Origin: Chloroflexota bacterium
Lineage (GTDB): Bacteria; Chloroflexota; Limnocylindria; Limnocylindrales; CSP1-4
Direction of reading: 5' to 3'
Assembly: GCA_005889475.1 (NCBI GenBank)
Contig: VBGT01000005.1
Coordinates: 5,961 to 69,960, forward strand
DNA: 64,000 nt
The notes under the pieces are model-generated. The model did no database searches. It saw only the letters and a program-made list of their open reading frames with translations, and was not told the origin of the DNA. Positions 37,112 through 39,700 of the stretch are shown here, piece by piece (the stretch's first letter is position 1; each line of letters begins with the position of its first letter). A program made the position numbers and the translations under genes.

Positions 37112-39700
37112 GTGCCACAGGTCTTCGAGACCCAGCTCGGTGGTCGAACGCTGACCATCGAAACCGGCCGGCTTGCCAGGCTCGCCGGCGGCTCCGTCAC
37201 CGTCCGCTACGGCGACACCATGGTGCTCGGCACCGCGAACAGGTCGGAGCCCAGGCCGGGCCTCGATTTCTTCCCGCTCACCGTCGACTTCGAAGAGCGG
37301 ATGTATGCGGCGGGCAAGATCCCGGGCGGCTTCATCAAGCGCGAATCGCGCCCGTCCGAGACGGCCATTCTCGCCGCCCGCCAGACGGACCGACCGATCC
37401 GCCCGCTGTTTCCCGAGGGCTACAAGGACGACATCCAGCTCGTCATCACCGTTCTCTCGACCGATCAGGAGAACAACCCGGACGTTCTCGGCACCGTCGC
37501 CGCCTCGGCCGCATTGAACCTCTCCGAGATTCCGTTCAACGGGCCCGTCGGTGCGGTCCGAGTCGGACGGATCGACGGCGAGTTCGTGGTCAACCCGACG
37601 CACAGCCAGCTCGACGAATCCGAGCTCGACCTGATCGTCTCGGGCACCCGCGACGCGATCATGATGGTCGAGGCCGGCGCAAAGCTTCTGCCCGAGGAAG
37701 TGATGGCCGAGGCCATCCTGTTCGGGCACCGATCCCTGCAACCGCTCATCGACATCCAGGAGCAGGTCCGGGAGGCGGTGGGCAAGCCAAAGCGCATTCC
37801 CTACATCGAGCCCCAGACCGGCTCGGTGCTCGAGTTCGCATCGGCGACCGATGCGAAGCGCGAGCTCGTCGTGCTCGACGTCGAGACGACCGGCACGGAT
37901 CCGAAGATGTCCGACCTCCTCGAGGTCGCGGCGGTCAAGATCAAGGGCACCAAGGTCGTCGACCGCTGGTCGACGTTGGTCGACCCCGGCCGCCCGATCA
38001 TCGGCAACCAGATGCACGGGATCACGGACAAGGACGTCAAGGGCGCTCCCAGCCCGAAGCAGGCCGCGGAGCAGCTGCTCAAGTTCGTCGGGGACGCAAC
38101 CCTCGTCGGACACAACGTCGGCTTCGACCTCGGGTTCATCGAAGAGGCCAGGGGCGACGGGTTCCGCTTCTCTCCGGGCTCGTACCTCGACACGCTCGTG
38201 ATCGCCCGTGAGGGCTACCCCGGCGCCGAGTCATACAAGCTCCCCGACCTGGCGCGCTTCTTCGGCATCGAGCTGGCCCAGAGCCATCGCGCCCTGCCCG
38301 ACGCCGAGGCGACCGCCAACCTCCTCCTGTGGTTCGCCAACGACCTGCCGGGCCGGATCTCCAAACTGCGGGAGTCGATCGCCGACGCAGTCCGGGCCCA
38401 GCGCAACGGTGGCGACACCAACGCCCTGCTCGACGCGGCGCGTCGTGACGCCCGTGTCAGCAAGAGCCTGTTCAACCTGGTCCAGAAGAAGACCGTTCGC
38501 CGCGTCGTCATCGACGAAGGGATCCGGATCGACGGCCGAGGCCTGACCGATATCCGACCGATAACGATCGAGGTGGGCCTCATCCCGCGCGCGCATGGCT
38601 CGGGTCTCTTCACCCGCGGTGAGACACAGGCCCTCACCGTGGCCACCCTCGGTGCGTCCTCGGACGTCCAGCGGATCGACACCATCAGCCCGGAGACCGA
38701 GAAGCGCTACATCCACCATTACAACTTCCCGCCGTACAGCACCGGCGAGAACAAGCCCATGCGCGGACCAAGCCGGCGTGACATCGGGCACGGTCACCTC
38801 GCCGAGCGTGCCCTTGTTCCGGTCCTGCCGAGCCAGGAGGAGTTCCCGTACGTGATCCGCCTCGTCAGCGAGTGCGTCACGTCGAACGGCTCCACCTCGA
38901 TGGCATCCACCTGCGGCTCAACCCTCGCCCTGATGGACGCGGGCGTGCCGATCACGGCGCCCGTTGCGGGGGCCGCGATGGGCCTCATCACCGAACCCGA
39001 CGGCACGTTCGTCGTCCTGACCGACATCCTCGGCAAGGAAGATGCGATCGGGGACATGGACTTCAAGGTCACCGGGACCCGCGAAGGCGTCACCGCGCTG
39101 CAGATGGACATCAAGGTCCAGGGCATCAGCGAGGCGATCATCCGCGAGGGCCTCAAGCAGGCGCTCGCGGCCCGTCTCACGATCCTCGACAAGATGGCCG
39201 AGGTCCTGCCCGAGGTTCGCCCTGACATGAGCGACTTCGCGCCCCGGATCATCACCATCAAGATCAACCCCGAGAAGATCCGCGAGATCATCGGCAAGGG
39301 CGGCTCCATGATCCGCAAGATCCAGGAGGAGACGCAGACCGAGATCAACGTCGAGGACGACGGCTCGGTCGAGATCGCCGCGGTGAGCGGCGAGAACTCG
39401 CGCAAGGCGATCCAGTGGATCGAGAGCCTGACGCGCGAGGTCGAGATCGGCGCCCTCTACCTCGGCAAGGTCACCCGGATCATGGGCTTCGGCGCCTTCG
39501 TCGAGATCCTGCCCGGCAAGGAGGGCCTCGTCCGCATCGGCGAGCTCGCGGACTACCACGTCCCGACCGTCGAGGACGTGGTCAGCGTCGGCGACGAGGT
39601 GATGGTCGTGGTGATCGAGATCGATCGCCAGGGCCGCATCAACCTGTCGCGCAAGGCGGCCATGCAGCGGCACCTGGCCAAGGAGCCGGTGACCGCCTGA
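37112..39700 (+). CDS. pnp: polynucleotide phosphorylase with embedded DEDDh exonuclease domain
   Basis: RNase PH-1 ([22 protein letters not shown]), RNase PH-2 ([39 protein letters not shown]), KH ([11 protein letters not shown]), S1 ([15 protein letters not shown]); 862 aa from GTG 37112. Confidence 0.95.
37862..38353 (+). other. DEDDh (DnaQ/RNase T-like) 3'-5' exonuclease domain nested in pnp
   Basis: Exo[10 protein letters not shown], Exo[15 protein letters not shown], Exo[14 protein letters not shown], in frame, with host-like GC3. Confidence 0.85.

Follow-up and report, generated by a model that had tools for sequence, protein, structure and literature searches.

A predicted DEDDh exonuclease domain nested within the helical linker of polynucleotide phosphorylase across the Limnocylindria

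Why would a housekeeping RNA-decay enzyme carry what looks like a second exonuclease in the middle of its own fold? The question is raised by the pnp gene in the 64,000-nucleotide stretch of Chloroflexota DNA (contig VBGT01000005.1) analyzed here, which we call the window. A first-pass annotation of the window described a polynucleotide phosphorylase (PNPase) with its canonical modules in order and an extra domain lying within the helical linker. Pfam, NCBIfam, alignment to E. coli PNPase and AlphaFold modeling all agree with that description. Two well-known modules, a phosphorolytic PNPase and a DEDDh exonuclease domain of the DnaQ/PolC type, are joined in an undescribed, nested combination that is fixed in the lineage. 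We favor, at a probability of roughly 55%, the reading that the protein is a bifunctional 3′-5′ exonuclease, both phosphorolytic and hydrolytic, in which the hydrolytic sites would serve RNA ends that the phosphorolytic ring cannot finish or use.

The gene lies in an uninterrupted open reading frame (ORF) at 37076-39700 on the + strand. The start codon was set at 37112, where the codon is GTG and not ATG, because the N-termini of homologues align there and because the sequence AGAGAGGA occurs about 11 nucleotides 5′ of it. The coding sequence of 37112-39700 and the product of 862 amino acids, both proposed in the first-pass annotation, are borne out by these observations. The parts of the gene are listed below.

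37112..39700, + strand: pnp coding sequence, 862 amino acids, GTG start, stop codon counted in; 950 bits to TIGR03591.
37112..37777, + strand: PH-1, the first RNase PH-like core, residues 1-222; Pfam RNase_PH and RNase_PH_C, aligned with E. coli residues 5-237, containing the FIKRE loop.
37820..37852, + strand: predicted linker helix 1, residues 237-247, kept 5′ of the insert; AlphaFold helix 237-247 in the full-length model and 13-23 in the sub-construct model (mean predicted local distance difference test, pLDDT, 90.9).
37859..38326, + strand: nested DEDDh (DnaQ/PolC-type) domain, a predicted 3′-5′ exonuclease, residues 250-405; PF00929 E=3.8e-28, dN/dS 0.14.
37868..37894, + strand: ExoI motif VVLDVETTG with D256 and E258; D, E, T, T and G invariant in 61/61 sequences.
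38108..38137, + strand: ExoII motif with D339; H334, F338 and D339 invariant in 61/61.
38282..38314, + strand: ExoIII motif of DEDDh type with H392 and D397; H392, R393 and D397 invariant in 61/61, at the N-terminal end of a predicted 39-residue helix.
38327..38518, + strand: rest of the all-alpha linker, residues 406-469; AlphaFold helices 394-432 (continuation), 436-447 and 451-469, partial PF03726 match.
38519..39211, + strand: PH-2, the second RNase PH-like core with the predicted phosphorolytic active site, residues 470-700; best Pfam RNase_PH stretch, within the alignment of residues 450-853 to E. coli 293-695.
39251..39424, + strand: KH domain, residues 714-771; Pfam KH_1 E=2.3e-10.
39440..39655, + strand: S1 domain, residues 777-848; Pfam S1 E=6.1e-18.

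Is the protein still a PNPase? The NCBIfam equivalog model for PNPase, TIGR03591, matches at 949.9 bits against a cutoff of 525, and NF008805 matches at 948.7 bits against 471. Both matches fall into two stretches interrupted by the insert. Pfam reports RNase_PH twice, RNase_PH_C twice, KH_1 and S1, in canonical order. The alignment to E. coli PNPase pairs residues 3-234 with E. coli residues 5-237 and residues 450-853 with 293-695, which leaves 215 residues of the 862-residue protein where the E. coli helical domain has 55. The Pfam model of the PNPase helical domain (PF03726) is matched in its C-terminal part only, by residues 445-476 at model positions 49-80 of 81 (23.2 bits, below the cutoff of 24.6). 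A Foldseek search with the full-length model returned PNPases for all of the best 50 matches, and identity to solved PNPases is 36-40%.

Conservation was read from 61 species-level sequences, namely 60 full-length genes extracted from related loci together with the window gene. The SNGSTS phosphate site and the metal-binding residues D648, D650 and K652 of PH-2 are invariant in all 61 sequences. The FIKRE loop of PH-1, which corresponds to FFRRE in E. coli, is also invariant (61/61). The phosphate- and metal-binding residues and the KH and S1 domains are as strongly conserved as the DEDDh catalytic residues described below, so the RNA-decay machine has been retained. By score, domain order, helical linker and PH-2 residues, the protein is assigned to the PNPase family (TIGR03591/PRK11824). 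It resembles the canonical enzymes of E. coli, C. crescentus and S. antibioticus in its PH-1/helical linker/PH-2/KH/S1 order, its conserved phosphate and metal residues, and its rpsO-pnp locus. It differs from them in having a DEDDh domain of about 155 amino acids between linker helices 1 and 2. No solved PNPase with such an insert occurs among the 50 best-matching Foldseek chains, all of which are too short for it (510-730 residues).

The insert is matched end to end by RNase_T (PF00929), with profile positions 1-164 of 164 aligned to residues 253-405 (99.5 bits against a gathering score of 24, E=3.8e-28). This is the complete RNase_T/DEDDh match, flanked by RNase_PH, KH and S1, that the first-pass annotation expected a domain search to return. 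Its placement of the catalytic residues was exact: D256 at nucleotide 37877, E258 at 37883, D339 at 38126, H392 at 38285 and D397 at 38300. These five residues and their ETTG, HxxGFD and HRAxxDA contexts are the same in every one of the 61 sequences, which otherwise differ at 30-40% of positions in the DEDDh region. The full-length domain, its complete set of motifs and its predicted RNase H-like alpha/beta fold place the insert in the DEDDh superfamily.

How widely is the architecture distributed? A database of 5.8 billion clusters at 90% identity was searched with two queries, and the best 120 matches were listed for each (240 in total). With the window protein as query, these matches are 860-878 amino acids long and at least 89% identical, and all have PF00929 and PNPase domains. 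Where a source is named for them, it is Candidatus Limnocylindria or Limnocylindrales. The other query, P0122, is the most divergent genuine member of the family, a low-GC orthologue of 864 amino acids from the streamlined freshwater genus Candidatus Limnocylindrus. It is 58% identical over a 325-residue query spanning the junctions and 68-69% identical overall, and its DEDDh catalytic residues are intact. The best 120 matches to P0122 again all have the insert. Taken together, the 240 listed clusters all contain PF00929 and PNPase domains and are 858-878 amino acids long (mostly 860-869), with the exception of one 729-residue entry that covers 84% of the query.

Genomes tell the same story. 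A scan of one genome per GTDB species, with a 265-residue query across both junctions, gave 345 confirmed relatives. The best 80 of the 345 are 69-91% identical, nearly all over the full 265 residues. All 80 come from metagenome-assembled genomes (MAGs) of the Chloroflexota/Limnocylindria type, and several lie on contigs of 1-2.9 Mb. At least 80 genomes at the species level have the fused architecture, with high-GC Limnocylindrales MAGs at one end of the range and Ca. Limnocylindrus at the other. Far from being rare, the insert-bearing PNPase is the usual form of the enzyme throughout a class that is abundant in the environment. Two loci with a fused pnp 82-85% identical to that of the window (L033, match at 6001-6795, and L049, match at 1156-1950) come from MAGs labeled Candidatus Dormiibacterota and Candidatus Eisenbacteria. 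They are probably mis-binned Limnocylindria contigs and not a sign of cross-phylum presence.

A HMMER search of 1.84 billion representative sequences was used to look beyond the class, and it returned 70 proteins at E<1e-30. Those inspected are fragments or frameshifted calls of the same family, apart from P0122 and a group of tandem-DEDDh replication/repair proteins. The search gave no independent PNPase-DEDDh fusion among its 150 best matches, a list below which a fusion to a strongly diverged DEDD domain would fall. Three kinds of candidate were considered and dismissed. First, P0142, P0143, P0158, P0162, P0169, P0180, P0188 and P0192 (38-49% identity) might have been degenerate or older fusions. 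They are frameshifted calls with R/P/S-rich out-of-frame stretches, and were therefore rejected as evidence of a wider or decayed distribution. Second, P0275 has 711 amino acids, exactly 153 fewer than its 864-residue cluster mates, as might be expected of an insert-free allele; it is truncated at the N-terminus and has the DEDDh domain. Third, the long multi-stretch matches P0152, P0165, P0171, P0174 and P0181 are tandem-DEDDh repair/replication proteins and not other PNPase fusions.

As a separate observation, many of the representatives of the 50%-identity clusters of the fused-PNPase family are frameshifted, which inflates the apparent diversity of the family in clustered databases. The frameshifts probably stem from high-GC, indel-prone assembly.

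The recurrence of the architecture bears directly on whether the insert is real. The ORF would be unusually long if it were a chimera of assembly, if it held an intein-like or selfish element, or if this contig had received a recent horizontal insertion, and its length is the sole observation in favor of any of these. The identical architecture is present in hundreds of independent assemblies (JGI, ENA, NCBI and Logan), the contigs of 1-2.9 Mb included, and always at a ribF-rpsO-pnp-asd locus. This refutes a chimeric assembly, which the first-pass annotation had named as a result that would overturn its description. Both junctions are kept at the 69-91% identity seen in the 80 species genomes. 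Neither GC content nor GC skew breaks across 37.8-38.4 kb. The G+C fraction at third codon positions (GC3) is 0.94 in the insert and 0.87-0.98 in the remaining segments of the gene, and synonymous codon usage in the insert correlates with that in the rest of pnp at r=0.94. The only repeats found around the insert are chance matches of 13-14 nucleotides. The impression of a native block with G/C-biased third positions, without flanking repeats or an intein signature, is therefore upheld.

Selection points in the same direction. The median ratio of nonsynonymous to synonymous substitution rates (dN/dS, 25 pairs) is 0.14 for the DEDDh domain, compared to 0.12 for PH-1, 0.06 for PH-2, 0.10 for KH/S1 and 0.18 for the helices. 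Purifying selection acts on the DEDDh domain. An intein or other mobile insertion is rejected on four grounds: the fold is DEDDh and not Hint, flanking repeats are lacking, the insert is fixed across the lineage, and its codon usage is native. Because composition, recurrence, conservation and selection all exclude a chimera, an intein and a recent mobile insertion, we give an artefactual origin a negligible chance.

Where does the extra domain sit in the fold? AlphaFold2 was run on a sub-construct of residues 225-475 with 29 family sequences, and the resulting model has a mean pLDDT of 90.9 and a predicted template modeling score (pTM) of 0.87. The predicted order is a helix at 237-247, the DEDDh alpha/beta fold at 250-393, a helix at 394-432, helices at 436-447 and 451-469, and then PH-2. 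The 39-residue helix 394-432 is unbroken in both AlphaFold models; it starts at the ExoIII H392/D397 motif and runs into the linker. The four predicted linker helices are thus 237-247, the distal half of 394-432, 436-447 and 451-469. The full-length model contains the same elements at an overall pLDDT of 68, with low values confined to the PH loops and KH/S1. These parts are modeled poorly because the alignment is shallow, the 120 best homologues listed all coming from this lineage. We conclude from sequence and models that the DEDDh domain is nested between helices 1 and 2 of the all-alpha linker, with a rigid coupling predicted between the two.

The E. coli enzyme suggests where this would place the domain in the assembled ring. 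Its helical domain lies on the side of the torus away from S1/KH and contributes to a pore that offers another way to reach the active site (PMC2723993). This domain is dynamic, and the pore has been proposed to control the traffic of nucleoside diphosphates (NDPs) and phosphate (PMC2723993). The Limnocylindria protein most likely forms a trimer, as PNPases usually do, and its three DEDDh domains should therefore sit on the face distal to RNA entry, a placement relative to the ring and its central channel that is taken from known PNPase structures.

This position raises the possibility that the domain is kept mainly as a structural or regulatory element, with turnover by it minor or absent. 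It could be a platform for RNA 3′ ends, nucleotides or partners, or a lid on the pore of the helical domain. Pseudo-nuclease DEDD domains exist in other proteins. The E. coli helical domain, dynamic and a proposed gate for NDP and phosphate access (PMC2723993), would lend itself to such a role, and the predicted rigid helix coupling would transmit movements. However, the five catalytic residues and the ETTG, HNxGFD and HRAxxDA motifs are invariant despite the divergence of 30-40% around them, the pattern expected of an active enzyme, and a purely structural role fits poorly with this. The dN/dS of the DEDDh domain also equals that of a catalytic-ring domain. We consider a scaffold or lid to be quite improbable.

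The genomic setting is that of a housekeeping gene. The neighborhood reads nusA, infB, rbfA, a DHH-family gene, the truB region, ribF, rpsO, pnp, asd, rnj (RNase J) and ftsK, and the gene is assigned as the housekeeping pnp of a classical nusA-infB...rpsO-pnp array. The gene directly 5′ of pnp is given here.

36713..37003, + strand: rpsO (ribosomal protein S15), directly 5′ of pnp; 123.6 bits to TIGR00952, cutoff 63.65.

This order is kept in the related loci. On the same strand, rpsO lies immediately 5′ of pnp in 74 of 74 cases, ribF lies 5′ of rpsO in 65 of 65, and asd lies 3′ of pnp in 59 of 59. No repair genes flank the pnp locus.

What kind of DEDDh domain was recruited? Sequence searches of the PDB give the PolC exonuclease (E=7.5e-24 and 2.7e-23) and the S. 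aureus DinG exonuclease (1e-19), followed by CRISPR-associated DnaQ, Cas2-DEDDh and epsilon. RNase T chains are remote in that search, at E=7e-5 to 7e-4 compared to 7.5e-24 for the PolC exonuclease. The best NCBIfam models for the insert are PRK07883 (DEDD exonuclease domain-containing protein), DinG and PolC. With the sub-construct model as query, Foldseek is led by DinG, PolC, DnaQ and epsilon, followed by RNase T and ExoX; for DinG, PolC, DnaQ, epsilon and RNase T the matches have E=1e-12 to 1e-8 and a probability of 1.00. Cho-like DEDD proteins are also among the best NCBIfam, PDB and Foldseek neighbors. Orn is absent among the PDB and NCBIfam matches listed, and the RNase T model is absent among the 25 best NCBIfam matches. 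The domain is thus not an RNase T or Orn orthologue, its nearest relatives being of the PolC, DinG and epsilon types, though it may still act on RNA. The first-pass label of a DnaQ/RNase T-like domain holds for its DnaQ half and is too specific in its RNase T half. Identity with the DEDDy enzymes Rrp6 and RNase D was ruled out as well, as ExoIII has His392 and there is no Pfam match to HRDC or DNA_pol_A_exo1.

In the HMMER search (1.84 billion representatives), the non-PNPase proteins that come nearest show 31-50% identity. Their partner domains are GIY-YIG/UVR, DinG helicase, PolC, BRCT and FAN1-HTH/VRR-NUC. By sequence, the insert is a member of a promiscuous, proofreading-type DEDDh clade that is commonly joined to DNA enzymes. 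It shares with the PolC, DinG and epsilon modules (PDB 9qpc, 2p1j, 8zef and 2ido) the fold and the ExoI/II/III motifs (H-x4-D), at E values of 1e-19 to 1e-24 and 26-34% identity in structural alignments. The PolC exonuclease is likewise nested inside another domain (PHP), as in P0220. In contrast, the hosts of those modules are a polymerase, a helicase and a repair nuclease, while the host of the insert is a phosphorolytic RNase ring, and the ExoIII helix of the insert is predicted to extend straight into the helical domain of its host. No donor was found: neither the window nor the flanks of 80 loci contain a paralogue, and stand-alone relatives reach about 50% identity at most.

Two side observations concern relatives of the domain. 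P0211, P0257 and P0262 (695-736 amino acids) carry a DEDDh module about 45% identical to the insert, fused C-terminally to FAN1-HTH and VRR-NUC, an uncommon architecture seen in metagenomic data only. The N-terminal half of P0170 (273 amino acids) resembles an unrelated stand-alone DEDDh protein, while its middle is close to the PNPase-embedded domain, including the ELPARV that follows ExoIII, and out-of-frame sequence comes next. P0170 may be a product of chimeric assembly, or else a free-standing relative of the donor.

With such relatives, the domain might be a DNA 3′-end exonuclease. The fusion would then equip PNPase for repair, through action on single-stranded DNA 3′ ends at breaks or stalled forks and removal of R-loop RNA, and not for ordinary RNA turnover. 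Activities on DNA ends and phenotypes in repair have been reported for the PNPases of Bacillus, Mycobacterium and Deinococcus. In favor of this alternative are the best neighbors in NCBIfam, PDB and Foldseek (PolC proofreading, DinG, epsilon, CRISPR DnaQ/Cas2-DEDDh and Cho-like DEDD) and the partner domains of the nearest non-PNPase proteins. Against it, the locus is the rpsO-pnp locus of RNA metabolism with no repair genes beside it, and the RNA-binding and phosphorolytic features of the protein are fully conserved. DinG, a member of the same DEDD clade, has rRNA precursors and the RNA strand of hybrids among its substrates (PMC12774634, PMC12525004). Clade membership therefore does not fix sugar specificity. 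We regard a dedicated DNA-repair role as rather unlikely, though less so than a scaffold role.

We return to the reading that we favor, a PNPase with both phosphorolytic and hydrolytic 3′-5′ exonuclease activity. A DnaQ/PolC-type DEDDh domain would have been fixed between linker helices 1 and 2 early in the history of the Limnocylindria lineage. In the trimer, S1/KH would feed 3′ ends into the central channel and on to three phosphorolytic sites. The helical domains would serve as rigid mounts for three metal-dependent hydrolytic 3′-5′ sites, on the side of the ring away from S1/KH. There are several possible targets for these sites. First, they may degrade the short limit oligonucleotides that PNPase releases. 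Second, they may act on 3′ ends close to secondary structure. Third, they may degrade ends when low phosphate or high NDP makes phosphorolysis reversible. Closely related DEDD domains of the DinG type degrade RNA in vivo and in vitro (PMC12774634, PMC12525004), which supports this reading. A division of labor of the same sort is seen where PNPase is followed by Orn/REXO2, a DEDDh nanoRNase, so that a DEDD-family hydrolase clears what PNPase leaves (PMC7261184), and the degradosome of Caulobacter contains both PNPase and RNase D (PMC4245959). Exosome rings and Rrp6 share the work in a similar way. Those systems differ from the present one in using separate proteins, and neither Orn nor RNase D is among the NCBIfam or PDB matches listed for the insert.

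Several points weigh against this assignment. The closest relatives of the insert are all DNA replication or repair modules (PolC, DinG and the FAN1-HTH/VRR-NUC, GIY-YIG/UVR and BRCT fusions), RNase T is a distant match at E of about 1e-4, and Orn is missing from the listed matches. With DNA-metabolism exonucleases as the nearest relatives, an RNA substrate cannot be assumed. Nor is it obvious how a threaded 3′ end could be passed on directly, because the DEDDh domain is predicted on the face opposite the RNA entry site. The full-length AlphaFold model is of moderate confidence (pLDDT 68), the geometry of the DEDDh domain relative to the ring is drawn from homologous structures, and its activity is a prediction. 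Finally, the cell may already have a nanoRNase, given the DHH-family (NrnA-like) gene near pnp. That gene, at 33849-34883 on the + strand between rbfA and the truB region, matches the NrnA model NF053633 at 76 bits against a cutoff of 350. The match is weak and the gene at most a putative nanoRNase, and this bears on whether the DEDDh domain would be the oligonucleotide finisher of the cell.

A more ambitious form of the bifunctional reading would make the protein a single-polypeptide bacterial counterpart of a dual-chemistry exosome, with three phosphorolytic sites and three rigidly held hydrolytic DEDDh sites that are functionally coupled. Limit oligonucleotides or stalled 3′ ends would pass through the distal opening of the channel, or through the pore of the helical domain, to a DEDDh site. 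One particle could then take RNA to mononucleotides independently of the phosphate supply. The likeness to the RNA exosome with Rrp6 is that an RNase PH-type ring is joined with a hydrolytic 3′-5′ exonuclease of the DEDD superfamily. Rrp6 is a DEDDy enzyme of the RNase D type and is bound near the S1/KH cap. The exosome partners are separate polypeptides, whereas the Limnocylindria domain is of DEDDh type, covalently nested and predicted on the opposite face, so the analogy is functional only and the arrangement is not homologous. The plant exosome keeps a phosphorolytic RRP41 beside its hydrolytic partners, with both chemistries in one machine (PMC5735172), and is the nearest case of such a phosphorolytic/hydrolytic division of labor. 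We hold functional coupling of the two kinds of site to be a tentative and somewhat doubtful proposal. If it is true, the protein would be an independent, convergent case of a PH ring combined with a DEDD hydrolase, and would offer a natural experiment on why exosomes took on hydrolytic partners.

The domain plan of PNPase is broken here across an entire abundant bacterial class. This should surprise RNA-decay specialists, even though both modules are familiar and the function we propose is a prediction. The Limnocylindria are abundant in soil and freshwater, and their PNPase ring would contain a second, chemically different 3′-5′ exonuclease. If the domain is active, the protein offers a compact model of coordination between phosphorolytic and hydrolytic decay, which is otherwise studied in multi-protein degradosomes and exosomes. 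Activity may also explain how these bacteria manage without separate hydrolytic exonucleases or live with phosphate limitation. It would further mark the helical linker as a permissive site for domain grafting, with uses in engineering.

A full-text literature search, thin on subscription journals, turned up no paper that describes a DEDD domain within a PNPase. The novelty claimed in the first-pass annotation stands to that extent, but the architecture is standard in a whole class and can be seen in public annotation. There the protein is given two names, "polyribonucleotide nucleotidyltransferase" or "DNA polymerase III epsilon subunit family exonuclease". This is a systematic annotation inconsistency, with one protein named either for its ring or for its insert. 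Because the architecture is class-wide and already visible in this way, it has been unnoticed rather than hidden.

The remaining observations concern the surroundings of pnp. An Rfam search of 35-42 kb gave no match. The rpsO-pnp leader (37004-37111, + strand, 108 nucleotides) folds into three predicted hairpins at -50.4 kcal/mol, which is not significant compared to shuffled sequences (z=-1.5). The first-pass annotation had placed NrnA, RNase J and RNase III in the same gene block as pnp. Of these, NrnA is the weak match described above. RNase J is indeed nearby, at 41861-43549 on the + strand, 2 kb 3′ of pnp after asd and one more ORF (NF047419, 672 bits; TIGR00649, 584 bits against a cutoff of 400). 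The RNase III gene, assigned by its ERLEFLGD signature alone, is at 7913-8719 on the + strand, 29 kb upstream of pnp and outside its gene block.

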